A DNA stretch of 57,697 nt from contig NC_079879.1 of NCBI RefSeq assembly GCF_029227915.1, positions 12,260,720-12,318,416 of the forward strand. Reading direction: 5' to 3'. The notes below the pieces were generated by a model, which had not been told where the DNA came from, made no database searches, and saw only the letters and a program-made list of their open reading frames with translations. Shown here one piece after another: positions 6,570 to 57,697 of the stretch (position 1 is its first letter; every line of letters starts with the position of its first letter). The translations under genes and the position numbers were made by a program. The DNA comes from Hydractinia symbiolongicarpus (lineage: Eukaryota).

Positions 6570-6606
6570 GAAGCTAATGATTTATTGACAATAAATCATT
6601 AGCTTC
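6570..6606. repeat. 16-bp-stem hairpin palindrome (gaagctaatgatttat / ataaatcattagcttc) with duplicated 'ttgacaataaat'
   Basis: Read directly as an inverted repeat. Confidence 0.6.
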
Positions 6607-7267
6607 ACCCTCAAACAAACGTTGTGGGTTTGAGTTAACGAAGGATGAAAATAAGTCCGGACAACTGCCCTGAAAACATGGCTTCATATGTCAACCGATA
6701 CTAATTGAACCATCTCCCCGATACGAGAGGTAAAGGAGAATTTCTTTTGACATTAACCCTGTCCCTGCAACTTTCCACTCAGAATCAGTTTTGTCATCGG
6801 TTTCTTCATCTTCACCAAAGTACCGCTGAATTTTGCTACCCCATAACAATTCAAATTCTTCTATCGTGTTATATTGAGCCTGCAGAAGACAGAGGTATTG
6901 CCAACCTTTTCAATTTTGTAAGGGCTTTACTCCCAGTTGCAAAATAGAAAAAATTAGCATTCACAAAGAAAGAAATAGACAAAAGTTACTGTAATAGATT
7001 GATAGACAAAAAAGAAAAAGATTATATACGTTATTATTAATGTCCATCCATGTGTCATTGATTTTTTTGATAAAAAAATATTCCAGGGAGGGGCCTTAAA
7101 TTTGCTTGTCGAAAAACTTTTGCGTTTTGTTGTTTTGAAATTTTCAAAGGCAAAAAAATTTCGCGAAAAGGGCCCAAAAGGGCCCGCGAAAGTTTCTACC
7201 CTTAAAGTATTTTAAACATTGGAGAAAACTCATTCATTTTACTTATGAATATATATCTTATGAATGT

Positions 7268-26000: not shown

Positions 26001-27202
26001 CAAAGAGTAGAGTGAAGTGGGAAGAAATGCCCTCCATGCTTCCTTCTAGACAGCGTAATAATTGCATTAACAGTCAAGGATACGGATATTCATTTTTTTG
26101 ACTTGCATTCTTCCGACACTCTAAATAGGATGTCCAGTGGGTATTGCGGCGCTAAGATTTCTTGGAAACAAATTTAACGCTAGATTTAAATGTTAAAATA
26201 ACCTTGTCACATGCCTTTACCTAAACGCTATCGCTAGTTGATGACAATAAATCCAATGCACATTGAAATGAAGATTAAACTTACAGCATTGTGCTCATAC
26301 GCAGATAGCAGTACACCACAACCAAATAAATATTATCAGACAGACTATTAATGAAGTAATCAGACTTAAAATTCAATGTTAGCAACCTTTCTTGAACAAG
26401 AAACGCGCTACAGACACAAAAAACGTACCACATGGGTAACCTTGGAAACATGAAGACAGAGTGCAAAATGAAAACATTTCGTTTCTGCAGAAGTGACAAA
26501 CATTGTTAAAAACATGAAGAAAAAAAAGAAGATACCTTGAAGATTTTTTTGCTGTGACGGTTGTTATTTTCCCCAGTCGTCCTTTATCATTAAATTTCAT
26601 GTAGTAATTATTTTTGTTGTGCGCGTCTTTTGCGTATTTGAATAACTTAACACGAACGAGCACAAAGAAACTAACGGTCGCAAGATAATGAGAAAACACA
26701 CGACGGGACGTTCAGAGGAGCATTAATAATAACTCTACATATCTCAAATCTCGAAAGGTCAGTTTAGCGGAACTGTAAAAGACAAGTGCGAAAAGAAACG
26801 CGTACATGCCATCCAAACAACGTGTTTTTCTTTAAAAAATAAATAAATAAATGTTAGCTTGCTTATTGAATGATAAACTTATTGTTTTAAAAGGAATAAT
26901 TCGAGATGGGTTGCATTTCAACATTAAACGCAATCCCCCGATACTTTCCAAATAAAGCAACATTTCTTTAAACATAAAAGACCCCTAATTAGAGCGCTGT
27001 GTTTTCTTGGATGACAAGTTTGTAAACAAAAAGCTATTATTGCTTGTAAATGTTAGTCTGAAAGCAATAGCCGCAAACCGCTTATTTTATTTCTTTACTT
27101 CTTCATGCACACGCAAGGAACGCTATATTTAACCTCGCGCTTAGAACTTTTGACAGTTCACCTTGATTCGAAAAGGTAACGCTACAAAGGAGCATTCTTT
27201 CC

Positions 27203-28312
27203 AACCTCGTCCCCAGGGCATCTTGTATCTTTTCTGACCCCGGGACGGCGATACGAACATGCTTTGTAATTTGTATTAAAACTCTTGAGATAATATATCA
27301 CAGTGGTGAGCTGGTAAATATCTACCACCATCTTTAGTACACCCTGGATTTAACCATATGCCTGATTGAGCGCTCAATCAAATTTGATTGAGTTCGATTT
27401 TCCGAAATTTCTTCATAGCGTGTTAAAAAAGGCCTAGCAAGAATCAGTTTAAGAAAATCTTCCTACCTTTTTCTCTTCCTCAAAATGGCTTTTTAAATTT
27501 TTTATGCCTCGTGTAAAATTATATTTTATCAGATAGGTTTAAAAGTACTCCTTAACAAGTTTCAAGTCAATAACTTTGTTTTTTTACCGAAGCTTTTGCA
27601 CTTTGAATTTTCTAGAATTAGGCCGGATAAATGTGCACTTAATGATAAAATGGCTCAGACGGTTAACCTACTGGCTTTTTATATCTTTTATAGTAACCAA
27701 AGCATATAAGGTAATAAAACATGCCCACTAATAACAACCTGATATAATTTAAAACGTAATGTATATATATATTTTGTGAAAAAAACATTTTCGATATTTT
27801 GTGCCAAATTATTTTGTCTATAAAGAACATGGGTGGCAATTTTATGCAACGTCATTCTTTGCAAAAAGCTGCAAATCAAACCTGGCCACTTGGAAACAAG
27901 TTGAGTTTCTTTCTTTTGTTCTTATCTTGATAGTTTGCTAGGTATGGTGTGCTAGCTAGCTACTTTTCTAGCTTTATTAAACATTCCCAGCTATTGAAAT
28001 ATTGTCATGTAAGCAGTATTACTTTATGATGTCTTATTTTATACTCTCATTGCTTAGTAATGCTTTTTATTAAATTTTTCACTTTGAAAAAAACTTGATA
28101 CTGCTGATACACCTCCGCCATTTTAATATGAACAGCTTCTTCCTCCTGTTGGTCACAGACTCGCCGCCTCGCCAAAATGTTTTGTATGACGCAATAATTA
28201 TTTGACATATCCGCGCCAATCAGGTTTCATATCGGAGCAGCCTCCTCCAGGGCCATGTTCGTATCGCCGTCCCGGGGTCAGAAAAGATACAAGATGCCCT
28301 GGGGATGAGGTT
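27203..28312. mobile_element. Non-autonomous DNA transposon (~1.1 kb) with 59-bp terminal inverted repeats and a ~9-11-bp target-site duplication
   Basis: The left TIR at 27203-27261 ('aacctcgtccccagggcatcttgtatcttttctgaccccgggacggcgatacgaacatg') is the near-exact reverse complement of the right TIR at 28254-28312 (1 mismatch). It is flanked by the direct repeats 'gcattctttcc' (27192-27202) and 'gcattcttccc' (28313-28323). There is no internal ORF longer than 63 aa. Confidence 0.7.
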
Positions 28313-29373
28313 GCATTCTTCCCTAACAACAGAATAAAATGAGGAACAGACATATTCCTAAGAATCGTAAATATTTATTTTCATAAGAAAGTTATTTCTG
28401 ACGGTAAAGAATTGTTTATATCTGAGTACAGCCCTGTTTATAGATTGGCACTGGATTTTTTTATTAATTTTTTTTTTTCATGTAAATTTCGTAGCACATG
28501 CGTTAAAAACTGCCCTCATATGTTAAAGGACGCAATAAGAACGGAGGGTCCACGGCTCTGAGGGGCGAGAACATCCAATTTCCGACACAAAAATTTTTTC
28601 GCTGTATTTAGAAAATAAAACCTTGAGGATTATCTCTTTGTCATTCACACGTGCTTGTACATTCCACACCATGTTAGCCGTTAATTTTAGACCACCCTCG
28701 ATTTAAAATCTAAATCGTCGGCCCTGTATCCTCATATTTCTAATTGCTCAAAATTGTTAGTTTATGCCTTTTTGCATCAACAAAAAGATAAAGACTTCGT
28801 AGTAACACGTATATAACACATCGAGTCAATAAAGTTAGAATGTTTCTTGTTTGTCTGTTACATTCAATCTGTCGTATTCATTGAATACGACGTGTACACC
28901 CGAAAAGAAATATTCTCATAAATATTTTTTTACTTATAGCAAGAAGACTTTTGTTGCCAATCTGATCATTGCAAACGGTTGTGTTTTCAGAGCTAGTACA
29001 TGATATAAAACAAAAGGGAATGGCGGGCTTTGTTAAATATACTAACTTTTGTATTTTTTGAAAAGAAGGACCCCTATTTATCACAAAATGATTATTTTTG
29101 CTTTTTGGCAAGACATCTTGGCAGCAAAAGACATTACTTAGAATGATAGAAATAGGTCTATCCTTTTATAAAACACATGATGAACAAATCATATGGGTAT
29201 TTTCTAATCGGTTACTCACGGCATGGTCAAACTATATCCATATTTATCAAGGTGTTGTCTTCTTTTATTGAAATGGGATTAGGACTAAATCGAAATATGA
29301 CGTTTATCAATACAAACTTGGCAAACTTACTCAGCTTACCAATAAATTGGGTGGGGTAAAAAACCTTGTATCG

Positions 29374-29398
29374 TGACGTCAATAAATGTTTGACGTCA
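29374..29398. promoter_or_regulatory. Two perfect CRE-type palindromes TGACGTCA spaced 9 bp apart (tcgTGACGTCAataaatgttTGACGTCAtt)
   Basis: Motif read directly. No adjacent gene was identified. Confidence 0.3.
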
Positions 29399-42830: not shown

Positions 42831-43811
42831 CTGCATAAAGTAAATTCAGCTGTATTCTGAGAGACAAATTTTTCTAGAATCACTAACAAAAACTTTGAGA
42901 CTTGCAGATGTGTTTAATAGGAATTTTGATGGGTAGTGTAAAAATGTATTGGCAACCTCGGAAAAGAAGAAAAATCTCGCCCCCGCCCTCCTTCCACCCC
43001 CGCCAATTTTAACCGACGGAATTTCATTTTGAATTTCATTTAATTTAGGTTTTTAATGAATTTAGGTGGGAAACGGTTATGTCGCCAAAGGAGACCCTGA
43101 GAACGAGCCAGGCTAACAAAACCCCTCCCCCATAACTTCCAAACACCATATTTAGTTAGCTTTTTTACAGTCAAAATGTTTTTGGTATGACGTCATGCTG
43201 ACACCCTTGTTAACGCAGGTGAAGAATATTCGGCTATTTTTTTTTTGAAATATCTTTATTACTAGTTCTAATTTTTTGTTAAACACGCATCATATAAAAC
43301 ATTTATTTTGATTGTAGTGGCGGCTTCTCCCTGTGTAACATGTGCTCTGGGTGTGCTTTAGCTCTAATACTCTTAGTGTAGAACTTTTCCGTTTTCAACA
43401 AAGCTTAGCATAGTATACAAAGAAAAGGATTCTTAATTGTATGATGGTGGTATCGGAGCCGATCCGAAGGCCTATCCTATAGCAGTTTTTTTTATTTCAC
43501 TCTCAATTTAAAGAAACTTATCAGACGAATTAAATTCTGCCAAATTTAGTTTTCCTCAAAAATTCCCTTTCCTCATCTAAACGCTCTAATTTTTGTGACT
43601 TTTCACACACACAAAATATATACATATAAAAAAAGTTTATCAAAAAACCTACCATATTGCATGAAATTAACAGTCAATAAATTCAAGCCTTTTATAAAAG
43701 GTTAGCGAAAAAAATACAGATATCGTGCGATTTATCTGTTTTGTGATCTAAAAAAGCTATAGTTCATTGTCAGTAGGGAATAGTCTACGTTTTAGTTTAA
43801 GTTGGTCAATT

Positions 43812-43895
43812 CTTTAAAGAAACATATACATGGTCGTTCAGCATATATATTTTTTTGGTTATATGCTGAACGACCATGTATATGTTTCTTTAAAG
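43812..43895. repeat. 84-bp perfect palindrome (36-bp arms 'ctttaaagaaacatatacatggtcgttcagcatata', 12-bp spacer)
   Basis: The arms are exact reverse complements. Confidence 0.75.
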
Positions 43896-44561
43896 TATTA
43901 ATATACGTTCACATGAACATGTCATTTAAAAAGTTGGTCAATTGTTGAAAAAGTTTTTCTATGTCGTTGTCAAGGAATTTGTTCCATAGTTTGGGTCCCC
44001 TACTAGTAAAAGAGTTGTGTGTTGTAAATACCAAAAGATTGTTTAAATTACTCTTGGAATCACTGTTTTCAAGTTTGAAAAGAAATATAACAGTCCAAAA
44101 AACGTTTTCCAAATACAAAAATTAGTCTCCAGTAACACCAATGACCCATTCCCATACATTGCCTTATGGAAGCATAAACGAATATAAAGAATTAAATTCA
44201 AAGAAGCAATCAAAAAATTGGTGCCATTTCAAAAGAATGTATATTTGGATCAATCTCAAGCTTTTTCCTGCCGATATATTCAAAATATATATGCAAAAAA
44301 ATAAAATAGAAAAAAATAAATACATGTTAAGTTATCTTCTCCTGACTTTGATTTTAGGTTTAAGAAGACATTTTATGGATAAACCTTGTTCCCAGGGCTT
44401 TTCCCGGCGTGAGATATGTAAAAGACAACAGGTCCTGAGATAGAGGCTGAACATGATAACTGAATTTTTTAAGAAAAGATCCAACGACTCTCTGTACAAC
44501 TAGAGAAACATGTCTATAGGCAACCTCGTTACCAAAGCTTGTTGTCCCTTTTTTATTATGA

Positions 44562-44720
44562 GATTAAGACCGTCCCCACTGTCAGAAAAGATACAAGATC
44601 CTTGGGATGTGGTTAATTCATATAAAGTGCGCTTCCTTCAACCTCGTTACTTAGGCATTCTGTCGTTGGTCATTCTGTAATAACGGCTCAGGGGCCACAA
44701 GACCCTGGGGAGGAAGTTAC
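44562..44720. repeat. Fragments of two dispersed repeat families just upstream of the virus-like element
   Basis: 44562-44612 'ccgtccccactgtcagaaaagatacaagatccttgggatgtggtt' matches the right TIR of 27203-28312. 44683-44715 'taataacggctcaggggccacaagaccct' matches 17290-17325 'ataataacggttcaggggcccacaaaaccct'. Confidence 0.5.
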
Positions 44721-45004
44721 GCTTCCTTGGATAACTTCAAAATAAGCTTCATCAAATGGAAGATAAATTAAATAATCATAGCAGAAATCAAGGAATAAAT
44801 TTCTGTATTCTAAAAATGATTTTTGCGTTTTAAAATATTCGTGTAGTTTTGCGTTCAATAGGTTAAATGGGAGCAATATCTGCGTTTTCTGATAGTAGTA
44901 GTAGGGAGTGATTATAATCAGGTTTTCGCTCCTTCCACACCTTTACCCCCAAAAACCCCGCTTTCACCATTTCCACCACCACCTCATCCCAAAATAGAAA
45001 AATC

Positions 45005-45125
45005 ATATGACGTCATCAACACATAATCATATTCATATGCCAATAACCAACACATAATAATAGATACCAGAAATACATGACATCATCAACGCATGCGCAA
45101 TAGCATATATGCTATATATAAGGGA
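45005..45125 (+). promoter_or_regulatory. Left terminal region: duplicated 'CATGAC(G/A)TCATCAAC(A/G)CAT' motifs (45005-45025, 45076-45095) resembling the adenovirus ITR core CATCATCAAT, followed by a TATA box 'TATATATAAGGG' (45113-45125)
   Basis: Read directly. The first copy contains the perfect palindrome ATGACGTCAT and the second contains 'CATCATCAAC'. Both lie ~100-200 bp upstream of the first ORF of the element. Confidence 0.5.
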
Positions 45126-45203
45126 AATTCCCTGAAATATTCAATCCTTGACCAAACCCAAAAAAAAAGTGCTGGTTGAAATTGAAATCTACCTATAATA
45201 AAG

Positions 45204-46073
45204 ATGAGTTGGTTCAAAAATGCAATCAGTAAAATATATAATATCGTGTCGGCACCAGTAGCGGCAACTCGCGAAGCTATCACTAAACAACTAAGGAGCG
45301 TGCGGGATACCGTTAGTTACTATTATAACAAGGCCAGGGATCAATTTTCAGGAACACCAACTCTCTACGATGAGGTTCAACGGGCCACCATCGAAGATGA
45401 ACATGAAGGAATTGAGGACCTCAAACACATGTTTGGGAAAGAATCTAAGCATGCCACCAACACGGAAGTGATCCAGGATATTCAGAACATTTTTGATGAT
45501 GACGCAGAAATGATAGAAGACGAAAACCGCATCAAAACATGGAGGTTCAACAAAAACCTTAACCAGCCATTGACAGATACCATTATGCGAAAAATCACAC
45601 CACACGTAGACATGTGTGTGAAGGTGGTATACAGCTTTGGCTGTGATATTTACAGAGACGGTGGAGATGTTGCAAATTATCACAAAACCAAGAGCTCCAG
45701 GTCACTATCAATCGAGGCTTTCATCGATGAATGTGAGATGAAACGCCTTGATTTGGAAGATGCGGAGTTTTGGACGAAAGCCTATTTACCACCAGACAGA
45801 ACCATCGAGACCCCAGGAGCATATGAAGGTAAAATAATATTCAAGCACATGCAGATCAAGATAATTTCTACGGGGGAGCCCCTACTTGGATATGCCCCAT
45901 TACCAGATTGGTTGCGCGGAAAAAGGTGCATTTATAGCTTTGACAAGACGGACGAGAGAACAGACAGCTTGTGCTTCTGCAGATGCCTAGCTGTTCATTA
46001 CCGGGAAGAGCGAAAGCAATGCGAAAAGTTCCTCACAAGGTCAGCTTTCAAACTGGCTCGTGAATACTACTAG
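45204..46073 (+). CDS. N-terminal ORF (289 aa) of the pPolB region; possible terminal-protein-like or N-terminal domain of the polymerase, or a separate gene
   Basis: ATG at 45204 in the context 'cctataataaagATGagt'. It is in the same frame as the next pPolB fragment (46257) but separated by two in-frame stops. No motif was recognised. Confidence 0.4.
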   Translation: MSWFKNAISKIYNIVSAPVAATREAITKQLRSVRDTVSYYYNKARDQFSGTPTLYDEVQRATIEDEHEGIEDLKHMFGKESKHATNTEVIQDIQNIFDDDAEMIEDENRIKTWRFNKNLNQPLTDTIMRKITPHVDMCVKVVYSFGCDIYRDGGDVANYHKTKSSRSLSIEAFIDECEMKRLDLEDAEFWTKAYLPPDRTIETPGAYEGKIIFKHMQIKIISTGEPLLGYAPLPDWLRGKRCIYSFDKTDERTDSLCFCRCLAVHYREERKQCEKFLTRSAFKLAREYY

Positions 46074-46256
46074 GACCCCAAGCTAAAGAGGGAAGAAGTA
46101 CGTGCTACGAGGCTCTTAGACCTGGAAGGTATCGCTACAAAATTCAAAATTAACATAAGAGTATTTGAACCAAAAACAAACTCCGACAAGGCCCCATGAC
46201 GTCTCGACTATGGTCAAAATCAATACAAAGAAGACTTAGACAAGATCAATATTGGT

Positions 46257-49004
46257 ATGCTACATGGTCATTGTTTCTATATCAAAAAGATGGATGTATT
46301 GACGCAGCATTGGGAATGCGAGGTTTGTACACAAAGATTTACCAGATCCGAAAATCTCACACGACACAAGAATAACGAATGCGAAGGCATCAAGACCAAG
46401 ATCATTTGCAAAAGTGAAAAGGTCGAGCGCATGCAGAGTAGCTCTGAAAAGGTATTCTGTCCCGATAAAGGGTTCAGTTACGCGGCATGCCAATGGATTG
46501 AGGCCATGTCAGAGCAAACAGGCCGACATATACACCACGCGATTTGTGGAAATGGAAGAAACGTGTGATACGCGATGGTATTAAGGAAGTTTATAGGGTA
46601 GATGGGTATGATCTTTGTACGAAGACAGTATACGAATACCACGGTTGCAAATGGCATGGATGTCCATGTCAACCACAGCGAACCAACACCGATAAAAATA
46701 ATTTCAATCGTACCAAATTTAAAAAAGGCCACATCAAAAAACTAGGGTACAATCTTGTCACTGCATGGAAGTGTGAAGATCCTCCCAAGGCTAACAGGTT
46801 ATTTAAGAAAGAATTTCGACCCTATCCCCATTTCATCGTTTTTAACTTCGAGGCCCTCCGGGCACCATTGAATCAGTAGCCCACGTACGATAGCCTACAG
46901 AAACATCCAACATTCATCATGAATGAAAGGTGCTTGTGCAAAAATTCGTCGAACAATTGGAGCAGAGACATATCCGTATTGTCCAAGAAGTCGAACGTAT
47001 ATATCCCAAGCCGGATGATTTTGATATGCTCCCGGAACAAACCCAAAATGCTTGGCTTGAATGGGTAAATCAAGTGATGGTGATAGGCTTTAACAGTGGC
47101 AAGTACGATATAAACCTGATAAAGCGGTATTTTGTCGAACGAATTGCGGATGATAATAATGTTAAAGTGGCGAAAAAGACAACGACTACATGTTTCTAAC
47201 CACATCGAGGTTCAAATTTATCGAAATTAAGAATTTTCTCGCACCAGGCTTGAGTTATGAAAAATGGTGCAAGTCGCTGGATTATGATCTCGAGAAGCTC
47301 GTGTTCCCATACGAATGGCTAACATGCTATGAAAAGTTGAACCATGTGGGCCCAGTCGATCATGAGGCATTTTATAGCACTCTCAGTGGTAAAAACACCC
47401 TATCACTTGAAGATTACCAGGCTTTCCGGGATGAGTTTTTTAAAAGAGAATGCGTGACGATGCTGGATTGGTTAGCCGAATACAATCTGGCGGACGTAAT
47501 ACCATTTATCGAGGCCGTCGACAAGACCTACAACACGTACTACGAGGATGAGATTGACATTCTAAAAGATGCCGTGAGCATTCCAGGTGTGTCGATGCGG
47601 TACGTTCTGAACAAGTCTCTGCGGTTGAACCATGATATAAATCTTTTTGCACCGGGTGATCCATGTAAGCATAAATGTGAGGCTCATTGTACCAAAGCCT
47701 TATGCAAAGCATGCAAGGAGGTTCAAAAAGATTGTACATCTTGTACAAAGAACAAGGCGTATGAGCTCCTGCAAATTGGCATGGTAGGTGGCCCTGCGAT
47801 CGTATTCTGCAGGTACCACGAGAGGGATGTGACGGGTATTCGCTCACATATTTATACCGAACCAAAAAAATGCAAGACAATACTCGGGTATGATGCCAAC
47901 ATGCTCTACCCAAGCACACTACTACAGGATTTCCCTTGTGGGAAGGAGAAGCTGGTAAAAATGGCAGACCCTGCTGAAAAAATAGATGATCTGGTGCAAG
48001 ACATTCTTGATGAATCGCTCTTCGGGTTTGCACAAGTTGATATTGAAGTGCCTACTGAGTTGTACGAAAAATTCAGCGAGATGTCACCGTTATTTTTGGT
48101 TAGAGAGATGACAATCAAATCCCTCAGCATATGCACGATTATTTGACCAAGACAGAGCGAAAACGTATCCCGGGTACTAAAAAGCTGTTGGGAGTGATGA
48201 AAGCTGAGAAGATTCTGCTTTGTACGGACCTGCTTAAATGGTACCTGGGGCATGGGTTGAAGATTACGGCTTGTTATCAAATACTCAAATACAAACGCGG
48301 TAAGCCATTCGCGTGGTTCCCGGAAGAAATTGCGGATGCGCGGTGCCAGGCAGATAAGGACCCCGACAAGCGAGTATTTAGAAGAGATTGGAAATGCATA
48401 TGAAGTAAGGCGGAGTAAACAAGGCGTTTCCATTAATAGAGCGTATCAATGTCGAATCCTAGTATATCAATTAGCTAAATTGCGGATGCTTCAATTCTAT
48501 TACGACTTCCTTGATAACTACGTAGATCGACGAAATTTCGAATATATTTACGTGGATACGGACTCCACGTATTTTGCAATCTCTGGAGAAAACCTACGTG
48601 ATGATGTTCGTCCCGAATTAATCGAGCAGTACAATGAGGCAGTGCCTAATTGGCTCGTTACAGACAATCCCTCGAGTAGAACCGGAGGGTTATTCAAGGA
48701 GGAATTCATTGGGACCAGTATGTTTGCCCTAACAGCCGAGTGTTATTTCGTCGAGGGTCAAGATGATACGAAATTTTCTTGTAAGGGCATGTCAAAAAGA
48801 CAAAATGAGATAACATGGTCTAGATATATGGGAGCACCTAACAGAGATTTGGATACCACTAAAAAAGTGGGCTTCCGCGTATATAATGAGGGAATGGTGA
48901 CTTATAAACAAAACAAGCTTGGGCTATCGGCGAACGCAATAAATGCCACCATGGGAAACAGCATGGCCATTGTGGAAAAAGGAAAACCAATCGAAAGGCT
49001 ATAG
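46257..49004 (+). pseudogene. Protein-primed family-B DNA polymerase (pPolB), disrupted by multiple frameshifts and stops
   Basis: The fragments are 46257-46568 (f0, C2H2-like 'CEVCTQRFTRSENLTRHKNNEC'); 46544-46879 (f2, 'TVYEYHGCKWHGCPC' Cys/His motif); 46930-47199 (f1); 47190-48146 (f0, exonuclease/TPR region and motif A 'KTILGYDANMLYPSTLL'); 48131-48403 (f2, pre-motif B 'KRGKPFAWFPEEI'); 48330-49004 (f0, 'SKQGVSINRAYQ', motif C 'YIYVDTDSTYF', 'KGMSKRQ'). Confidence 0.8.
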
Positions 49005-49079
49005 ATTCATATCAGAGTAATTTAGCGCTTTATCCAAAGGTGTTGTGAGACACCCCCTTATACACAAAGCTGCAAATAA

Positions 49080-49691
49080 ATGGAGTTATTTTTACTGATA
49101 TCGATACTCCTCCCATACGTAGTAATCATTGCTTGTTTCTGTCGGTACAGACGTCTAATAAACATGGCTCAAGATTTATCGGAGATATTTGACGTAGTTG
49201 ACACTCCAGCCGAGGCTGTTGATCAACCTATAGATAAACGCAAAGCTCTGAAGGATATTTGTAAGTCAAAGCCTCAATTTTTAGCGAAAAAACATACTGA
49301 GGCATTCCTGGACAAAGCATCACCCGAGGTTATAGAAAAAATATACAATGACTGTACTGAACAAGAGTTGGTGGAAAAAGGGCAGAAGACTGCCTTGGCC
49401 CTTTCAACCCATGCGATAAGCTTGTACACTAAGCCAATAGGAAATATTGTACCGCTCGATAGTCCCGAAGGTCTGCGTCATGATTTAGAAAACGATCCTA
49501 TTATCCGCGAATCCATGGCTGATCTTGGGATCCTCGTCTATACAGCATTCGAGAAATTCCTCGCGCTTTTGTTGGTAGCGGCACATACCATTAATCACAC
49601 CCAGCTCTCAATGTCCAAGAGTGGTGACGAGCAGGTTGATGAAGAGAAAGAAAAGAATGGGAAACAGCCTATCGAAGATACACATGGGTAA
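49080..49691 (+). CDS. Hypothetical protein (203 aa) with an N-terminal hydrophobic segment and an acidic C-terminus; alternative ATG at 49164 ('ctaataaacATGgct')
   Basis: Intact ORF. The ATG at 49080 lies in the context 'gcaaataaATGgag'. Confidence 0.4.
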   Translation: MELFLLISILLPYVVIIACFCRYRRLINMAQDLSEIFDVVDTPAEAVDQPIDKRKALKDICKSKPQFLAKKHTEAFLDKASPEVIEKIYNDCTEQELVEKGQKTALALSTHAISLYTKPIGNIVPLDSPEGLRHDLENDPIIRESMADLGILVYTAFEKFLALLLVAAHTINHTQLSMSKSGDEQVDEEKEKNGKQPIEDTHG

Positions 49692-49938
49692 TCGTGAGTT
49701 GGTTGAACGGGTAAACCTGTTACTCACAGGCGGAAAAACAGCCTGCAGGTATACAGATATTACGGGGACGGGGGCTGTTTACGGGGACTGTGCACGTGGT
49801 ATAGAAATCCTGACACCTGTAGGAGATCGCTTCCCACCACAAGCATATGATTTAGTGGCAACTAAACATATGAATAGGGTTATGGTCGATGGTAGAAACG
49901 GTTTAAAGGCCACCAAGAGGAGGCCTTGTATGTTATGA
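49684..49938 (+). CDS. Small hypothetical protein ('MGNRELVERVNLLLTGGKTACRYTDITGTGAVYGDCARG...')
   Basis: The track ORF 49621-49938 starts at GTG and overlaps the previous ORF. The ATG at 49684 is the first after the stop of the upstream ORF. Confidence 0.25.
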   Translation: MGNRELVERVNLLLTGGKTACRYTDITGTGAVYGDCARGIEILTPVGDRFPPQAYDLVATKHMNRVMVDGRNGLKATKRRPCML

Positions 49939-49987
49939 AGATTAAGCTAGAGGGAAGTGATTTTATAACTCGTTGGAGTTATAAAAA

Positions 49988-50263
49988 ATGATCACTGAAC
50001 AATCAAAACAAGAGAGGGTTATAACAAAACCAGTGAAACACCCTGGGAGAGTAGCCCAAGGCCACAGACTAGCGGCACTGATAAGGGAGAGAAAGCTTGG
50101 AAGAGCTCCGCCCAAGAAAGACCCCATGACGTTTAGAGAGTTCTTAAGATACTTTGAGAGAGATTTAAATACTCCTGAAGTCATACTCACGGGGATAAAA
50201 GAGACTGTGGAGATGCTAGAGGAACAGGGTCTATCCCTCTATCTGAATGTAAAAAAGAAGTGA
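49988..50263 (+). CDS. Small basic protein P1 (91 aa)
   Basis: ATG in the context 'gttataaaaaATGatc'. N-terminal motif 'QERVITKPVKHPGRVAQGHRLAALIRERK', shared with the adjacent paralog. Confidence 0.5.
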   Translation: MITEQSKQERVITKPVKHPGRVAQGHRLAALIRERKLGRAPPKKDPMTFREFLRYFERDLNTPEVILTGIKETVEMLEEQGLSLYLNVKKK

Positions 50264-50292
50264 TTTGTTACAGGTCTTACGGCCTATAACAA

Positions 50293-50626
50293 TTGAGTGA
50301 AGAGACTACCCAAGTAATCACCAAGAAAAACGAAGGACGTGTTGCTGCTGGTAAGAGACTTGCGGAATGGAATCGCAAGAACAAGGCCGACTTGAAAAAG
50401 AACATGGGCAAAGGTACTTTGCAGGATGGTCAGGAACCTGCGGCAGGTTCCTCCAAGTCCATGGGAAGAATATATATTGGTGGAGGCCTTATTATCATGT
50501 ATCGGAGGTGTCATATATTTTATCCGTAAAAAACCCGCGGGTACTCAGCAGCCTGCTGCAGTGGCTCAGCAACCAAGCGTTAGGCAGGAGCCTAAGGCAG
50601 ATATTGATATTTTTCACACGAGATAG
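50293..50626 (+). pseudogene. Paralog P2 of the small basic protein (TTG at the start position, C-terminal frameshift)
   Basis: 'MSEETTQVITKKNEGRVAAGKRLAEWNRKNK' aligns with P1. The start position is TTG ('cctataacaaTTGagt', against 'ataaaaaATG' in P1). The frame then shifts into 50426-50626, which encodes a TM-like 'EALLSCIGGVIYFIRKK'. Confidence 0.4.
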
Positions 50627-50637
50627 GCCTATAATAA

Positions 50638-50886
50638 ATGTCAAACGTAAGTCCTCAGCAAAAGGAGATTATAGACATGATTTATGAGACAGTCGTGGAT
50701 CTTGGGTTCACAATTGGATATGCAATGGTTGGGAAGAAATTCCTTGAGATCTCGAGTCCTTCGACTAAGTTGGATACCAGCGACGTTATGAAAATGGTAG
50801 CGTATTCCACCGCAGGGCGAGGCAGTCGTGAGATGGCAGTTAGCAAGGGGTGGTTGCCCGCGAGTATAGTCCCAAAACCCAAGTAA
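50638..50886 (+). CDS. Small hypothetical protein (82 aa)
   Basis: ATG in the context 'cctataataaATGtca'. Confidence 0.35.
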   Translation: MSNVSPQQKEIIDMIYETVVDLGFTIGYAMVGKKFLEISSPSTKLDTSDVMKMVAYSTAGRGSREMAVSKGWLPASIVPKPK

Positions 50887-50901
50887 GCACCTTACTCAAA
50901 C

Positions 50902-51350
50902 ATGTTGGATATTGTTAAAGAACCTCATACAGCGATATTTACCGGGCCTACGTCGTGCGGTAAAACTCAAAGAGTTCTGGCCATGCATGAGCATGAGTAC
51001 AGGGGACAATTCCACAATATCGTTATACTCTGTCCTACTCTCCGCTGGAATGCCACTTATCTCGATAGACCATCGCTTTGGAAAGATCCTTATGTATTTC
51101 TTATTGATCCAGGTGATAATTTGTTCGATTGGATCGAGAAACTATCATCTCTGCTGGCAGGCGAAGAGAGCTTGTTTATCGTAGATGATATCATCGCTAA
51201 TGAATCTCTCGACTAACGAAGGCAACCTTGCTCGAGTTAGCAATATCTGGTAGACATCGAAGGCACTCAATATGGCTCTTGACTCAATCATACACGGCAA
51301 TTCCAAAAAATCTCCGCCGACAGAAAAAGCAGCTGTTTGGATGGTGAGAC
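50902..51350 (+). pseudogene. A32/FtsK-HerA-like DNA-packaging ATPase, split by a frameshift
   Basis: 50902-51216 carries Walker A 'FTGPTSCGKTQ' and Walker B 'SLFIVDDII'. Continuation in another frame after 51216: 'KATLLELAISGRHRRHSIWLLTQSYTAIPKNLRRQ' (the A32-like 'SGRH...Q.Y..IPK..R.N' region). Confidence 0.65.
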
Positions 51351-51459
51351 CAACCTTATCGAAGATTGGGAGTCGATCAAAAACCAGTTGAAAAAATCAA
51401 AGCATGCGTGCCTATATATTCGTCTCGAGCATCCTCGGAATTGGAGTACATTAGAATAA

Positions 51460-51648
51460 ATGGCATACATCAGAACATTAAAACAACAGCTGAAGGCCTG
51501 TCACGAAGAAATGGACAAAATACCCTATCTAGAATCTCAACTGGAAGCTCTTGATGAAGAGCTAAGGTATGCATTAGAAAGGGAAAGGAATACCAAGTAT
51601 TTTTTTATAACCGTCCTACTCATTGTGACCCTGGTTGGGGTAATGTAA
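51460..51648 (+). CDS. Small coiled-coil protein with a C-terminal transmembrane anchor (62 aa)
   Basis: ATG in the context 'tagaataaATGgca'. '...LEALDEELRYALERE...' then 'FFITVLLIVTLVGVM'. Confidence 0.4.
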   Translation: MAYIRTLKQQLKACHEEMDKIPYLESQLEALDEELRYALERERNTKYFFITVLLIVTLVGVM

Positions 51649-51657
51649 ATAATAAAA

Positions 51658-52464
51658 ATGTCCTTACTTGCTTTAAACACATTACCTGCTGGAGCTATTG
51701 AGACTTTATTCGATGCGCAAGATCAGCCTCTTTTTAAACGTGCTGATCTTGGGAGATTCTTGAGAATTATTGATATAAGAACATCTTGTAGAGCTCTAAA
51801 TATAGTGGAGAAGACGCGTATAGAGCCAAATGCTCAGGACCCGGCATGGTATGCCGGGCCAAAGGAAACTAAAAATCCTCACGATGTATTCATCTCCTTG
51901 GACGGTGCTCTTGAGATTTGTGTACATTCAAGAAAACCAAAGGCTCTTGAAATTATGAGAATGCTGGCGTCGAAAGGGATTGAAAAATTACAAGAAACCA
52001 TCGAAGAGCATCATCAAGCTCTTGCAATACTTAGCGATGACCTAAAGGATAGGGACGTAACTATAGCAAACCTTCAGGAGGATCTTCAGGAAAGAGAAAA
52101 CCAACTCGACCTACGAACATTGGAAATTGCGGGACTCCATCAAAGATACGTACCACATGCCAATGATGCGGGCAAGGAAAATGTTATTATGATTTTTCGC
52201 AAACATACAAAACCGGAAGACGATAAATACCACCATCTTCCGTATTACTGTGCCGCGTACAAAAACGGGCAATCTTCAAGAGAAAACGATGGATCAGGGC
52301 TCAATATCCTGAGTCTGAAGAAACTGTTGCTATTGATAATGCAAATGGCATGCATGCGTTTAATCGGTTTGAAGAGGAAGGACATATGGAGCGATACATA
52401 TGCCACTTCAGGCTTATTGGTCTTACTCGCGAGCATTTATATGACCTGGGAGATCCGACATTAG
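51658..52464 (+). CDS. Bro-N (baculovirus repeated ORF N-terminal / KilA-N-like) DNA-binding domain protein with a C-terminal coiled coil (268 aa)
   Basis: ATG in the context 'aaataataaaaATGtcc'. The N-terminal ~110 aa ('LFKRADLGRFLRIIDI...DVFISLDGALEICVHSRKPKALEIMRMLASKGI') matches the Bro-N pattern (...GLY.LI..SRKP.AK.F..W...). A heptad-rich region follows ('LQETIEEHHQALAILSDDLKDRDVTIANLQEDLQERENQL'). Confidence 0.6.
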   Translation: MSLLALNTLPAGAIETLFDAQDQPLFKRADLGRFLRIIDIRTSCRALNIVEKTRIEPNAQDPAWYAGPKETKNPHDVFISLDGALEICVHSRKPKALEIMRMLASKGIEKLQETIEEHHQALAILSDDLKDRDVTIANLQEDLQERENQLDLRTLEIAGLHQRYVPHANDAGKENVIMIFRKHTKPEDDKYHHLPYYCAAYKNGQSSRENDGSGLNILSLKKLLLLIMQMACMRLIGLKRKDIWSDTYATSGLLVLLASIYMTWEIRH

Positions 52465-52635
52465 AAGATTAGAGAGCGTGGTTTTGTGTGTTCATAGCAC
52501 ACAAAATCGAGAAATATTACCATTCCCTAACATATTCTGGCGGTACCTCAGCACCCTCGGGAATCAACATGAGCTCCTCCGCCACAAAACTTCGATCAGG
52601 ACCTCCATCGAGATAATATAGGAGACGGGTACCAG

Positions 52636-53934
52636 TTACGATACGGTCGAGTCTATACGTACGCTTTGACCACCACGCATCAGTCGCGCGTCTTTTGGCA
52701 TCCCCATGTTCCTCACCAGGCTGTAGGAGATATAAATATAAGCCGTCTTCTGGTAATGTGTTTTCCTCGGGTGCTTCTCACTTTTCGCGAGTGGTACTTC
52801 ATCAAGCTTGATCGCTTTTGAAGGTTTCATTCCAATCATCGCGGTCTTGGTGTTGTTCATGGTTTTCACAATATTGTACAAGTGCTTGACCCATGTGGTA
52901 CTAGTTTCGTCAGATGCAAGCTCTTGCGCATCCTCGGGCTTGAAGAGCCTTTGTGCGAGTACTTTGTTGTAGGACTCCACGAACGCTGTGAACGCATGGT
53001 GATATTTAGTAGTTGCCCGGTTGATGGAAACGCGTTTGGATTCCAACAGCTTACTCACATCAGACTTGAACTAACTACCATTATCGCATTGGAAGGTCTT
53101 GGGGTATCGTAAAGGTCCTGCTTTATAAATATCCTTGATATATCCTTAAAATATCCTTCTTAGTACGTAATGGCCTCGCTACCTTATACCTTGAGGCCAC
53201 GTCAATACCCGTCAAAATGTACTTATAGGTGTTTCCATAGACTTTGTCATGGGGCATGTAGAGCAAGTTAATGCATCTCGTTGGGCTTTGTGATTGTGAA
53301 ATGTGGGTAGTTGATGCGCTTGGGCCCTTTGATATGTCGGAGGCAGAGCAACTGACGACCAGTGCATTACTCTCTTTTTTGATAGGCCAGAGTTTTCAGC
53401 GAGCAGTTTGATCGCTTTCCGTCCAGTCCAGAGATTTTCTGGAGAATAGTAGATTTGACTAAGCTTTTCAGCTTCCTCCCCGGTAATGATATGTGCTTTT
53501 GTTTTCGACATCTTTATTATACATGTCGAAAACGATTGCGCCCATTTGTACGCCGCAAAACCCAAAAGGGCTAAGGAGCCAAGAATGAACGTCAGTTCAC
53601 CGTCTTTTTGCTGCTTTGAGGGTGTATAAATATCTGAGAGCTTTGGGGCCCTATCGATAGTAGCAATGAAATACTTTCTCATTCCTTCGTCCAATTCCTT
53701 CAAATCTTCACCAGCTTGCCTTTGCTCCTCCCTTCTCTTATTGTACGTATCAATTTTTGCTTGTCTGTCACGCACCCATTGAGCTTGGGCAGCTTGAAGT
53801 TTTTCTACCGCTAAATCGTGCCTTTTCCGCTCTTCTTCACCATGACCTGAGAGTTTACTGAATAGGAAATTAGAGCCACTAAAGGCCAATGCGTTAATCG
53901 CTGTACCTGCTACGAGCATATCAATTGTTGCCAT
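52636..53934 (-). pseudogene. Retroviral-type (rve) DDE integrase, frameshifted with an internal stop; read through in-frame from an upstream 141-aa membrane/coiled-coil segment
   Basis: Likely integrase ATG at 53509-53511 (minus), context 'gtataataaagATGtcg', giving 'MSKTKAHIITGEEAEKLSQIYYSPENLWTGRKAIKLLAENSGLSKKRVMHWSSVALPPTYQ...'. This resembles the Polinton/Ty3-type integrase N-terminus (YYDP..GF.....L...A......+.+..V..WL..Q). A frame switch leads to 'LTGIDVASRYKVARPL' (catalytic D1). A second switch leads to 'KTFQCDNGS*FKSDVSKLLESKRV...' (D2, with a TAG stop in the DNGSEF motif) and then 'FTAFVESYNKVLAQ' (catalytic E). The track ORF 53212-53934 starts with 'MATIDMLVAGTAINALAFSG...', which has 2 hydrophobic segments and a coiled coil. 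Confidence 0.7.
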
Positions 53935-53977
53935 TTATTTTGTAGACCCAAGGCCTACAAAAACAAATTTTGATCTC

Positions 53978-55189
53978 TTAATATTCTACACTGTGGAACC
54001 TGCCATCCAGGATGTTTAATTGCGCGTCTTGGATAAGGAAGACGTAGCACCTAACGTCTCCATTGCCATCCGCTTTTTTCGTCATGTGCAGGGTTATACC
54101 GTCCCATAACCTTTGCAGAGGCCGCCCACTACCATGTAGGCCCCGATCATGTGTTGCCCTGAAATCAATGAATAGCGCATAGCGCTTGGTGAAAAATTGA
54201 CCTATGGTCACTTCACTATCATGGCACCCAAATAATTTAACGATCTGCTGCAAATGATCTCGAGGGAGCATAGAATGTGAATACCGTGACAGAAATCTTT
54301 TCGATTTTGGGATTGTAGAATTGCTCATTGACACCCGCATAAGCCTTGGATACTTCAGGATCGACGAATAGTAGTAATATACCCACCAAGGATTTAGCAG
54401 GGGTATCGACTTGGAGATTGTAGGATGTATCACTTTTCTTCATAGTCACCACTTTACTCCTCAATACTCGTTCGTATGGTAGGGCAAGGCGGCTGTATTG
54501 CGACATCATAGCGCTCGCCAGATCCTCATTACTAATTGTTCAAACTCGAGCGAAATGTTAGAGATTTTGTATGTAGCGTCAGCTGCCTTGGCTGCGGTTG
54601 AGCCTGCGGCTGGTGTACCGGCATCCTTGATGACTTGATCGTATGAAGCGAAATGTAGAACGAACTTTAGCCTATCGTGGAGTCCATGTTGATAAAACGG
54701 GGGATCTCTCGTCAACTCGAACATTTTCCCCAACGGAATACAAAAAGTGTTTCCGTAAGCCGCGGCTATAGCACGCTCCTCATTTGTTCCTACATGATCA
54801 GACGCTTTTACCTGCAACGCACGGATTGTTCCATCATTTGGATTTATGCCCTCCAAAATCAGGTTATTTTCCCGATTGAATTTTGATATCCATAGATCAC
54901 GGTAGACATTGAATACATTATAATCTGCAATATGCTGGACCTCATTCCCATTCAAAGTAATACGTAGGTCACGCACCAGGGCCTTCCCAATATTGCTAAC
55001 GAGCGTTCTTTTCGTGTTGGTGCCGGTCAGTTCCATATCAAATAGTAGCCGGATACTCCCAGGAAATATAATATCGTCTCGACCAATCGTGGACGGTACA
55101 TGACTCACTTTAACCCGCTGCCTCTTGCCTATGACAGCGAGCATAGTCTTGACTTTCTGATAAGGGTTTAGTCTTCCAAAAACACTCAT
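53978..55189 (-). pseudogene. Candidate major capsid protein gene (~400 aa) split into 3 ORFs (54506-55189, 54237-54509, 53978-54433)
   Basis: ATG at 55187-55189 in the context 'cctaaataaATGagt'. Beta-rich composition ('DDIIFPGSIRLLFDMELTG...LRITLNGNEVQHIADYNVFNVYRDLW'). The size and position match the virion module of Polintons. The assignment is by position and composition only, with no motif-level proof. Confidence 0.3.
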
Positions 55190-55218
55190 TTATTTAGGTA
55201 GTCTGGTGGTTGAAATAA

Positions 55219-55677
55219 ATGGCTGATAATCTGGGATATGAAGATGACTTTACGCCAGAGGAAGATATTCAAGACGAAGCCGAGGAGTTTAGTAGCGAGA
55301 GCGAGATCCTTCGGCCCAAGCCTGATGTCAGCCTAACGCCAGGACAACAGCAGGGAGGTGCGCGTAGGCGATTGGATGTGGGGCTGGGGGAACAGAATTT
55401 AGAGAAAACCGTCGACGATCTTTATGCTAAACTTAGTGAGCATTTAGGATTAAGGCTGTCAACCGATAAAAATTATCATTATTTTAGGGCCGATGAGGGT
55501 AAAAAGCTTGTTTTTAGACAGATGACGAAAGGGGAACGGGTCTATAAAGAGATAGTTCTTACGACTATGACCGGTGAGTTAAGAGCTATTACAGCCATAG
55601 AGACGGACTTAGGACCTACGCGTCTAAAGGCCTTAGGTTTTACCGGCTATGTTACACCAAAAAAGGCAGTAAAATGA
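55219..55677 (+). CDS. Hypothetical protein with an acidic N-terminus (152 aa)
   Basis: ATG in the context 'gaaataaATGgct'. Confidence 0.35.
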   Translation: MADNLGYEDDFTPEEDIQDEAEEFSSESEILRPKPDVSLTPGQQQGGARRRLDVGLGEQNLEKTVDDLYAKLSEHLGLRLSTDKNYHYFRADEGKKLVFRQMTKGERVYKEIVLTTMTGELRAITAIETDLGPTRLKALGFTGYVTPKKAVK

Positions 55678-55970
55678 GAAGTCAAAAACTCCTGAATGAT
55701 ATTGATATCATCAATGACAACCCTGGTGACATCGAGATGCTGCCGCTACTAGAGAATGTAATAGATGATGCGAAGAGCCTGATGGAGGATGCTTCCTTTA
55801 CCGAAGCCTTAGAAGAACGTGAAAGAAAGGGGGTTAACCGCGAGCTTCAGACTCTCAACGGTAAACTGAAGAGGTTAAAGATAAAGAAAGCTACACCAGG
55901 TGTATCCGAGGAGCAACAAAAAATTAAGGACATCCACAATCAGCTGAGGCGATTAAGGAGACCCTCATGA
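55674..55970 (+). CDS. Small coiled-coil protein (98 aa)
   Basis: ATG in the context 'cagtaaaATGaga'. Overlaps the neighbouring ORFs by 4 nt (ATGA). Confidence 0.35.
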   Translation: MRSQKLLNDIDIINDNPGDIEMLPLLENVIDDAKSLMEDASFTEALEERERKGVNRELQTLNGKLKRLKIKKATPGVSEEQQKIKDIHNQLRRLRRPS

Positions 55971-56374
55971 AAATAGCTGGAAATGACACATCCCTACGGG
56001 AGAAATTGATCATTTTGGTCAAAGAGCAGGGGCTCACTATCGCGAGCATCACCTCAGCTGTTGGTCTACTGGTCTCTACCATCGTGCTCGCCGTCACCGG
56101 AGGAAGTGCAGGCGCCGTAGGAAGTACAAGAGGAGGTGGTGGTAGCAAAAGGTTTGTAAGAAAGCAGTTGGAGAGACTGGGAAAATTCCTGAAGTATCTA
56201 GCAGGCAAGGCCGGGGCAGCATTACCAGGGATCATTAGCAGCGTGGTGTCGTTCTTTTTCAGAGTTGCAGCGAGAGTTGTCGAATTCGCAGCAAAGCACT
56301 TGTATATGGCCTTGGCTGCCGCTGTGGGTATTGTTGTTGCGTATGTAAGTAACAGGAGGAGTAAGAATCGATGA
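55967..56374 (+). CDS. Membrane protein with 2-3 TM segments and a Gly-rich loop (135 aa)
   Basis: 'LTIASITSAVGLLVSTIVLAVTGGSAGAVGSTRGGGGSKRF...AALPGIISSVVSFFF...LAAAVGIVVAYV'. Confidence 0.35.
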   Translation: MKIAGNDTSLREKLIILVKEQGLTIASITSAVGLLVSTIVLAVTGGSAGAVGSTRGGGGSKRFVRKQLERLGKFLKYLAGKAGAALPGIISSVVSFFFRVAARVVEFAAKHLYMALAAAVGIVVAYVSNRRSKNR

Positions 56375-56405
56375 AGAGTCTAGTATGTTGTTCAACACAT
56401 TAGAC

Positions 56406-56966
56406 CTATTTCTTCATCCAGATGAAAGCGAGGATAAGTCCTACTCCTACCGTAACCAGCGTGGCTTTGGTATCCTCGTGAACAGCAGCTTCCTTGGAGG
56501 ATGGTGGAGGGAGGGGTATATCATGTACCTGCTTCCTTGCTATGGGATTGGCAACAGTATGCGGAGCGTTAATATTGGGATTGATACCAATCTTGAAATG
56601 GTCCTGACTAATCAAGATCCTGTTGTTAAATCCAGCCACATTTCCGATCCTCAGTGACATATCGCTTGTGATCATATATACGCCACGAGCAACACTATAG
56701 TCGAACTTGCTTCGTGCATATCTGAGTACGTTCTCGAATTCACTAATCTCTCTACCTTTATTTGTAGGTCTAATCCCCAGCTGTTCAAAGGTCGTCAAGT
56801 AAAGCCGTTGAGCATCGATAGAACTGCCTTGATTACCAATAATTCCTGATCGCGCATTGGCTTGGGACTCCAAAATCAAATACGGGTAGCATCGCACACT
56901 TTGCAATAACTTTTCAATACCAATACTGGTAAAGCCTTTGCTATTTTCCATGATCCTCCTCCTCAT
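56406..56966 (-). CDS. Hypothetical virion-module protein (186 aa); possible minor capsid/penton candidate
   Basis: Intact minus-strand ORF with ATG at 56964-56966. No motif was recognised. Confidence 0.25.
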   Translation of the reverse strand: MRRRIMENSKGFTSIGIEKLLQSVRCYPYLILESQANARSGIIGNQGSSIDAQRLYLTTFEQLGIRPTNKGREISEFENVLRYARSKFDYSVARGVYMITSDMSLRIGNVAGFNNRILISQDHFKIGINPNINAPHTVANPIARKQVHDIPLPPPSSKEAAVHEDTKATLVTVGVGLILAFIWMKK

Positions 56967-57396
56967 GATCCGGCATCAAAATACGAAGGTCCCGCACCGG
57001 GAAAATCTTTACGTTTGGCTTGCCAACTACTGAACAACGTTTCATTTTCCCATTCATGCTCACTTGGAAATACTCCAAATACACGGCACGTACAAGGGGT
57101 AATGGAGACGTTAGATGCTGCATCGATATCCCACAACCTGATGTTGCAGCGAGTACAGCAAAGTTCAATTGTGTTCACCAGAGGCTGAAAGGGTGGGTCC
57201 TCCAATCATTAATCGGAGGATTACTATGAAAAACATAGTCCACAAAGATATCGGGAAACCGTACTTTAAATGACGAGCCTTTCGCATCAACAACGATAGA
57301 TTGCACAATGAGATCAGAGCCCTTTAACTGCTCCAGGTACCTGCCATGATTGGGGACATATTTTGCTCTTGAGTTGTACGAATATAGTTGCTTCAT
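56941..57396 (-). pseudogene. Fragmented minus-strand ORFs; speculative adenain/Ulp1-like cysteine protease remnant
   Basis: 'QPLVNTIE...' (frame 56963-57205) and 'AVLAATSGCGISMQHL' (frame 56941-57168, TTG start) resemble the adenain 'VNT..' and 'Q..S.SCG.F' contexts. Weak. Confidence 0.15.
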
Positions 57397-57697
57397 GTTT
57401 CTTAAAGAAAGATGCGACAGTTATATATAACCGACATTTCGAACCCCACGATATTTGAGAATTACCTAGGAGAGGACACGAGGATCGCTCTAAAATCCAT
57501 AAGTATTCGGTTGAACCTCTACAGTAACAACGATTTTACTATCCGTAAGGTAGGGCCCGATCAGACGGTTACTCGAATTGAAATAATGAATGGGTTGTAC
57601 AAGATCGAGGATTTAGCGAGTATCGTCAACAGTCAGGCACAGGGCAAGGTACAACTTTTTGTTCTGAAAAATGGACTCTGCAGGCTACGTGTTAATG

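Follow-up and report, generated by a model that had tools for sequence, protein, structure and literature searches.

From position 44894 onward, the window (the whole stretch of 57,697 nt that was analysed) is occupied by the left 12.8 kb of a Maverick/Polinton virus-like element that has decayed by mutation; the genome is of hydrozoan type. A short motif found twice just inside the left end of this element was confirmed to be a real, conserved cis-element and not a product of chance. Its core is the CRE palindrome TGACGTCA and, based on its conservation in related sequences, we consider it probable that the CREs form a bZIP-site enhancer of a promoter embedded in the terminal repeat. The element itself is of a known kind; the CRE array in its terminal inverted repeat (TIR) is a modest detail that is apparently new, literature searches having returned no description of CRE sites or arrays in Maverick TIRs.

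Element identity and left terminus

At ~45 kb of the window the G+C content climbs from ~0.35 to 0.41-0.47, and the ORFs downstream of this point are broken. Five features by which Mavericks/Polintons are recognised were found, namely a family B polymerase (PolB), an rve integrase, a capsid protein, an A32-type ATPase and a TIR with a reiterated end, the last seen as (AGT)3AG in the window and as a full TIR in one relative, L001 (Table 1). Relatives were gathered as DNA around homologues of the first ORF of the window element; the nearest named ones are Hydractinia symbiolongicarpus proteins, and the others come from ENA assemblies. The first ORF of the window and the Hydractinia proteins P0003 and P0017 were not on record in an exact-protein look-up.

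Table 1. Positions of the mapped features in the window
Feature	Position	Strand	Basis or remark
Host flank TCTGAT abutting the element, candidate 6-bp target-site duplication half	44888..44893	.	just outside the terminus
Left terminus, trinucleotide reiteration (AGT)3AG	44894..44904	+	alignment start shared with L001, L008, L002, L004
Conserved terminal block of ~45 nt (AGTAGTAGTAGGGAGTGA..GGTTT)	44894..44940	+	conserved alignment columns
Motif copy 1 with perfect CRE ATGACGTCAT	45006..45024	+	115 nt from terminus, 196 nt 5' of ATG
Motif copy 2 with degenerate CRE TGACATCA	45076..45094	+	126 nt 5' of ATG
TATA-like run TATATATAAGGG	45113..45124	+	18 nt after copy 2; window-specific
Palindrome AGGGAAATTCCCT, NF-kB/Rel-like GGGAAATTCC, conserved promoter block	45121..45133	.	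motif comparison
Proximal block GCTGGTTGA ... TATAATAAAG, directly 5' of ATG	45171..45203	+	conserved in relatives
Family B polymerase, fragmented	45204..49004	+	Pfam DNA_pol_B_2, tblastx to relatives, motifs
A32/FtsK-like packaging ATPase fragment	50902..51216	+	GPTSCGKT motif
Bro-N domain protein	51658..52464	+	Pfam Bro-N, E=1.1e-4
Retroviral-type (rve) integrase fragment	52636..53139	-	56% identity over 96 aa to the L003 rve gene (PF00665)
Major capsid protein (double jelly-roll), split in two ORFs	53978..55189	-	Pfam Capsid_N, E=4.8e-4
Fragments of a conserved ~390-aa Maverick protein with no assigned function	56406..57231	-	tblastx to L001 15351-16046

That the polymerase is of the protein-primed PolB type was established by Pfam in the window and by the motifs of the intact L002 relative. 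The DNA_pol_B_2 match covers 47190-48146 (E=9.6e-6; 25.2 bits vs a cut-off of 25.8), the pieces of the gene are 52-78% identical to L002, L008 and other relatives by tblastx, and the motifs NSGKYD, DANMLYP and YVDTDS are kept. ExoI-III, motifs A, B and C and KxY are all present in the L002 protein, whose identity rests on this motif inspection; searched by sequence against Pfam, PHROGs and PDB, it gave no polymerase match. The window gene carries an in-frame stop (46071-46073) and at least 6 frame changes, and same-frame homology continues past the stop of the first ORF to 46232. The polymerase is thus split over at least 7 ORF pieces, and in intact relatives it is a single ORF of more than 1,380 codons (the long ORFs leave the loci before the N-terminus). 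The most likely reading of the first ORF, previously taken as a possible TP or N-terminal polymerase domain, is therefore that it encodes the N-terminal part of the polymerase and is not a separate gene. In the N-terminal extension (46257-46879) there are two features conserved in L002, a C2H2 zinc finger (Pfam E=6.8e-5) and the motif YEYHGCKWHGC.

The other genes were identified mostly through their relatives. By tblastx, the ATPase fragment shares 57-73% identity with its counterparts in L001, L008 and L010, and the L013 homologue matches Pox_A32 at 2.2e-8. The Bro-N genes are syntenic in relatives. The integrase identity to the L003 gene applies to 52636-53058 on the minus strand; the fragment itself gave no match in Pfam. 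The capsid fragment is 31% identical to P0175 (E=3e-29), the AlphaFold model of which (pLDDT 87.3) matches the capsids of PBCV-1, iridovirus, mavirus and Sputnik with E-values of 5e-17 to 1e-12; judged by this model, the window fragment belongs to the double jelly-roll major capsid protein family. Past the ~390-aa Maverick protein, no further gene could be recognised up to the window end. Several conserved ORFs had no Pfam match. The window copy is a fossil: it is decayed and its second CRE is mutated, so nothing in this copy is likely to be active.

The left end of the element is at 44894 and reads 5'-AGTAGTAGTAGGG. In the alignments, the window, L001, L008, L002 and L004 become similar precisely at the AGT run, outside which they share nothing, and the boundary therefore lies 112 nt 5' of the first motif copy (182 nt 5' of the second). 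With a slash marking the junction, the window reads ...TTTTCTGAT/AGTAGTAGTAGGGAGTGATTATAATCAGG and the left end of L001 ...AAAGAAAT/AGTAGTAGTAGGGAGTGAATTAAAG, while the termini of L008, L002 and L004 read /AGTAGTATAGGGGAGTGAATT, /AGTAGTATTAGGGGG and /AGTATTAGGG, respectively. The terminal block of ~45 nt is presumed to be the core origin and the integrase substrate. In a more distant group, the terminus is AGTAGTATATA (L003) or ACTACTATATA (L009 and L010). Between these loci, a G/C difference is seen in both terminal trinucleotide repeats simultaneously (L003:9430, L009:9732, L010:9347), as expected if jumping-back copies the second repeat from the first.

Both ends were recovered in a single fetched locus, L001, which is an 8.1-kb deletion derivative. 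The reverse complement of the terminus, ...CCCTACTACTACT, is found 8.1 kb downstream, and the two TIR arms are identical at 166/166 positions when a 59-nt tandem duplication of the left arm is set aside. The flanks of L001 read ...AGAAAT/element/GAAATC..., a 5-nt direct repeat GAAAT abutting both ends, with 6 nt not perfectly matched. The L001 CRE occupies arm positions 95-102, inside the 166-nt TIR, and hence recurs inverted at the other end. Membership of the motif in the TIR was shown in this one relative because the right end of the window copy lies beyond the window, by at least ~1.3 kb according to the synteny with L001; within 44894-57697, neither the terminus nor the motif recurs in inverted orientation. 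The inverted motif that the preliminary description had proposed looking for at the opposite terminus was thus seen in the relative, where the core sits inside the TIR, and not in the window. A scan of IMG/VR and of the JGI metagenomes with a conserved Maverick protein gave no confirmed locus.

Two further observations concern the terminal regions of relatives. Tandem repeats with units of 59 to ~115 nt lie between terminus and CRE in L003 (9540-9830), L010 (9390-9780) and L001 (9755-9872), and their copy number varies between element copies and, in L001, between its two arms. In addition, the metagenome contig L007 opens (1-50) with the Nextera adapter GTCTCGTGGGCTCGGAGATGTGTATAAGAGACAG, which runs straight into GTATTAGGG; compared with the predicted terminus AGTATTAGGG of the element that is chromosomally integrated in L004-L006, the junction lies one nucleotide further in. 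Either a free linear end or an error of assembly could have left this junction.

Several repeats were also observed in the neighbouring host DNA. About 1 kb 5' of the element, 43808-43899 forms a near-perfect hairpin (arms of 40 nt, loop of 12 nt), which probably represents a small foldback or MITE-like repeat. A pair of 60-nt inverted repeats, 98% complementary, surrounds ~1 kb at 27202-27261 and 28254-28313. Related CAACCTCGT... fragments are found just 5' of the Maverick (44521-44664), so other host transposon remnants are present. In L002, a Helitron-like helicase ORF (5753-8320, minus strand; Helitron_like_N, DUF6570) was found ~1.4 kb 5' of the Maverick.

The duplicated motif and its conservation

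By direct reading, the motif is TATGACGTCATCAACACAT in copy 1 (45006-45024) and CATGACATCATCAACGCAT in copy 2 (45076-45094), with a start-to-start distance of 70 nt, as the preliminary description had reported. Its consensus is matched exactly by copy 2 and with one mismatch by copy 1, which begins with T instead of C. The palindrome ATGACGTCAT described for copy 1 was located at 45007-45016, with a perfect CRE core at 45008-45015, and the string CATCATCAAC described for copy 2 at 45081-45090. When up to 3 mismatches were allowed, the degenerate 19-mer matched twice in 57.7 kb, both times at the motif copies, against 0.03 matches expected from shuffling; none of 100 dinucleotide shuffles reached two. 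Under gapped alignment of both copies the repeat grows to ~45 nt. The bare 8-mer TCATCAAC is unremarkable (5 in the window vs 2.6 expected).

The core of copy 2, TGACATCA, is a one-base (G-to-A) variant of the CRE. Copy 2 overlaps a CGCATGCGCA block at 45090-45099, and at the place equivalent to copy 2, L001 and L008 read TGCGCATGCG. The core differences between the window copies are both CG/CA changes. CpG decay was considered as their source and rejected: the observed/expected CpG ratio is 0.88 in the element vs 0.90 in the host part, and there is therefore no sign of methylation-driven decay.

The motif copies had been proposed as the adenovirus-like origin or terminal-repeat core of the element. 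The CATCATCAAC string shares 9 of 10 bases with the adenovirus sequence CATCATCAAT, a superficial likeness, and the element does encode a protein-primed polymerase. Nevertheless, this proposal is almost certainly wrong, since the terminus lies 5' of both copies with its own (AGT)n reiteration, and CATCATCAA is present in one of the two window copies and not conserved in the relatives, whereas TGACGTCA is. The window string exists because copy 2 reads TGACATCA and not TGACGTCA; as it arises from this G-to-A difference, it is therefore incidental. The core does recur in other copies of the element, yet its position is subterminal and not terminal. The element map is corrected accordingly, with the AGT reiteration at 44894, and not the CATCATCAAC string, as the replication/integration end.

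Perfect TGACGTCA sites were found in all of the terminus-to-ATG regions (11/11; 18 sites in total), comprising 8 polymerase ends and 3 ankyrin-gene ends (the right end of L001, L011 and L012). The 8 polymerase-end regions account for 10 CREs in 2,969 bp, vs 12 in the other 183,668 bp of these loci, an enrichment with a Poisson P of ~2e-14 that is to be read with the copies being related sequences and not phylogenetically independent samples. The estimate is conservative because the background includes the right TIR copy of L001 and an unrelated satellite. Among loci carrying the polymerase end, no CRE was found inside the element bodies. L011, alone among the later-fetched loci, has extra CREs, which may lie inside or outside the element. 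Whole-region MAFFT alignments were poor, with indels and tandem repeats, and motif-anchored tables were used for these comparisons.

The number of perfect CREs per region varies from 1 to 6. There is one each in L002, L003, L008, L010, L011 and both arms of L001, two in L004, and two accompanied by three one-mismatch sites in L009. Six tandem CGATGACGTCATCAAAAAATC units are present in both L012 and L013; these CGATGACGTCATCAAAAAATC(AG)GAAAATC arrays lie 5' of the ankyrin gene (L012:6502-6711, L013:1649-1849), and the L012 unit holds the 12-bp palindrome GATGACGTCATC. The units of L012 and L013 also reproduce the ATGACGTCATCAA of window copy 1, without CATCATCAA, so part of the longer motif first described is conserved. 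Among the loci examined, TCATCAA is confined to the window (twice), L008 and the L012/L013 arrays, and CATCATCAA to window copy 2 and L008. The inward flank of the CRE is asymmetric, TGACGTCA being followed mostly by T, C, A and A, and all copies thus share one orientation relative to the end. AP-1-type TGAGTCA sites were found beside the CRE in L002 and L008.

A neutral local duplication, functionless and CRE-like by chance, would suit a decayed fossil in which copy 2 is mutated in its core. We regard this as very improbable, as the perfect core is kept in every terminal region across lineages whose adjacent proteins share only 40-60% identity, and in view of the enrichment given above.

The palindrome ATGACGTCA also occurs in host repeats unrelated to the element, namely a 134-bp satellite in L008 (1383-1921) and, in the host DNA of the window, a pair of sites 17 nt apart at 29374-29398 (29374/29391). 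CRE-like palindromes are therefore not exclusive to Maverick ends.

A probable promoter in the terminal repeat

The suggestion that CRE-like sites drive the polymerase gene, made as an alternative in the preliminary description, gains support from the conservation of the CREs between terminus and ATG. From these sequence data we infer that a bZIP factor binds the CREs and that the CREs activate transcription. The left end of the element is organised in three layers. At the extreme end, (AGT)3AG and the ~45 conserved nucleotides would provide the presumed integrase substrate and the start of protein-primed replication, with the AGT reiteration allowing jumping-back. At 113-201 nt inside the end come the two predicted CRE copies, (A)TGACGTCA(TC)AA, one perfect and one a one-base variant, which would most likely act as binding sites for host CREB/ATF/AP-1-family proteins. 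The putative proximal promoter follows, with the GGGAAATTCCC palindrome, GCTGGTTGA, an AT-rich box and the polymerase ATG, and would drive the inward-facing terminal gene. The CREs lie inside the TIR, so the same cassette would drive the gene at the other end too.

The proximal layer is also shared by the relatives, which have GGGAAATTCCC at -66 to -82, GCTGGTTGA at about -30 and, at their polymerase ends, TATAATAAAG at about -10. The palindrome, which we take to fit the NF-kB/Rel consensus, was mapped 66-82 nt 5' of the ATG in the window, L003, L008, L009 and L010, and also at the ankyrin-gene ends of L011, L012 and L013. Similarly, GCTGGTTGA is found at ankyrin-gene ends, and TATAATAAAG is conserved solely at polymerase ends. 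In L003 (9925-9960) and L009, GGGAAATTCCC is contained in a 32-nt perfect palindrome, AAATGAGTAAAGGGAAATTCCCTTACTCATTT.

Two candidates for a TATA box were rejected. The run TATATATAAGGG is present 18 nt past copy 2, with the ATG of the first ORF (45204) 80 nt further on, as had been described; it is specific to the window, the relatives reading AGTAAAAGGG or AGCAAAAGGG at this position, and is not conserved. TATAATAAAG was rejected as a conventional TATA box as it lies too near the ATG.

The repeat extends into the genes themselves. L001 has a second inverted block further in, GCTGGTTGAGAAAA...ATGAGTTGGTTCAGAAA, that spans the proximal promoter and the first codons, and both terminal genes therefore start with MSWF(K/R)NAI; the ORF at the right end of L001 (17490-17528, minus strand) shares MSWFRNAIANLY. 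In the window, the first 56 residues (45204-45371) are 68% identical (38/56) to the N-terminus of the Hydractinia ankyrin protein P0054. The N-terminus is common to the polymerase and the ankyrin-repeat protein, since the start of each coding sequence falls within the inverted repeat.

The CREs might instead be bound by a protein of the element, as a packaging signal like the adenovirus A-repeats or as subterminal integrase or transposase repeats. A short, subterminal, directly repeated motif of variable copy number would fit such a role, and the element encodes DNA-binding candidates in the Bro-N protein and in the C2H2 finger of the polymerase N-region. We find this improbable, however: the core matches exactly the palindrome of the ubiquitous host bZIP factors, extended to GATGACGTCATC in L012, AP-1-type TGAGTCA sites co-occur with it, and we know of no need of rve integrases for subterminal repeats.

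An auxiliary role in replication, with host bZIP factors at the subterminal CREs recruiting or stabilising the polymerase/terminal-protein complex, seems to us unlikely, if less so than binding by a protein of the element; it is compatible with the promoter role, and the two are not mutually exclusive. Measured to the ATG, the nearest CRE is 100-204 nt away (SD 34); measured to the terminus, the distance ranges from 67 to 521 nt (SD 153), which is only suggestive of a spacing tied more to the ATG than to the terminus (Levene P = 0.09). Such a variable distance from the end argues against the auxiliary role as the main constraint on the CREs. In L003 and L010, long tandem arrays come between the CRE and the end, whereas the auxiliary origin sites of adenovirus are fixed at 25-50 nt from the end. 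On the other hand, the CREs are within the TIR and thus at both ends in L001, equally well placed for replication, and their orientation is constant relative to the terminus. Moreover, adenovirus offers a direct precedent: the inner half of its ITRs holds an ATF site (TGACGT) that is conserved and has a reported contribution to replication efficiency (PMC2685984).

If the CREs are promoter sites as we propose, this hydrozoan Maverick family would keep a recognisable host-type promoter in its terminal repeats, made up of the CRE array, the Rel-like palindrome and the proximal block. The CRE would then offer a concrete, mutable cis-element for studying how endogenous Mavericks switch on; Hydractinia is transgenically tractable. 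A bolder extension, which we put forward only tentatively and with considerable doubt, is that in cnidarian Mavericks the CREs and the NF-kB-like GGGAAATTCCC form a switch, present in both terminal repeats, that responds to host signals. On stress, cAMP or immune signalling, the polymerase and ankyrin terminal genes would then be turned on and host factors would at the same time be loaded beside the protein-primed origin, coupling the transcriptional reactivation of an endogenous virus with its replication. Such a switch would be an ancient counterpart of the ATF/Sp1 half of the adenovirus ITR.

Comparison with known systems

The Maverick/Polinton elements described by Kapitonov and Jurka in 2006 and by Pritham in 2007 reportedly have the end motif 5'-(AGT)n//(ACT)n-3'. 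In vertebrate Mavericks, the commonest end motif is 5'-(AGT)2//(ACT)2-3' (Barreat & Katzourakis 2021, PMC8097293), target-site duplications are 6 bp long, TIRs measure 46-1447 bp, and the end reiteration is attributed to the jumping-back step of protein-primed replication (PMC8097293). The present element is like Mavericks/Polintons in its protein-primed PolB, rve integrase, A32-type ATPase and double jelly-roll capsid, as well as in its AGT end reiteration and, in L001, in a TIR length within the published range; the GAAAT repeat of L001 may be a short target-site duplication. Like most genomic copies, it has decayed by frameshifts. Unlike the published vertebrate Mavericks it has a hydrozoan host, and unlike published Mavericks its relatives have as inward-facing terminal genes a polymerase and an ankyrin-repeat protein that share their first 13-56 codons.

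The CREs resemble those of cellular genes recognised by CREB/ATF/Jun bZIP proteins, having the exact 8-bp palindrome TGACGTCA, extended to ATGACGTCAT or GATGACGTCATC, and multiple sites 100-200 nt 5' of the start codon together with TGAGTCA. They differ from cellular CREs in being carried in the terminal repeat of a mobile element and in their conserved asymmetric 3' flank (TC-A-A), and their binding is a prediction.

In adenovirus, the ITR contains the core origin CATCATCAAT/ATAATATACC, NFI and Oct-1 sites, and Sp1 and ATF sites in its inner half; the NFI, Oct-1 and Sp1/ATF sites stimulate the initiation of replication, and the inward-facing E4 promoter is ATF-driven. The present element differs in its triplet (AGT, where adenovirus has CAT), in having no NFI or Oct-1 sites that we could see, in its internal and incidental CATCATCAAC string, and in its integration via an rve integrase, which adenoviruses are without. 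Both are linear protein-primed genomes with a terminal trinucleotide reiteration for jumping-back and the counterpart of the adenovirus CATCAT is the AGT reiteration, not the duplicated motif. Finally, both have a TGACGT(CA) ATF/CRE site in the inner part of the terminal repeat beside an inward-facing promoter (PMC2685984 for the ATF site), and it is to this ATF site in the inner half of the ITR, not to CATCATCAAT, that the duplicated motif bears its resemblance.
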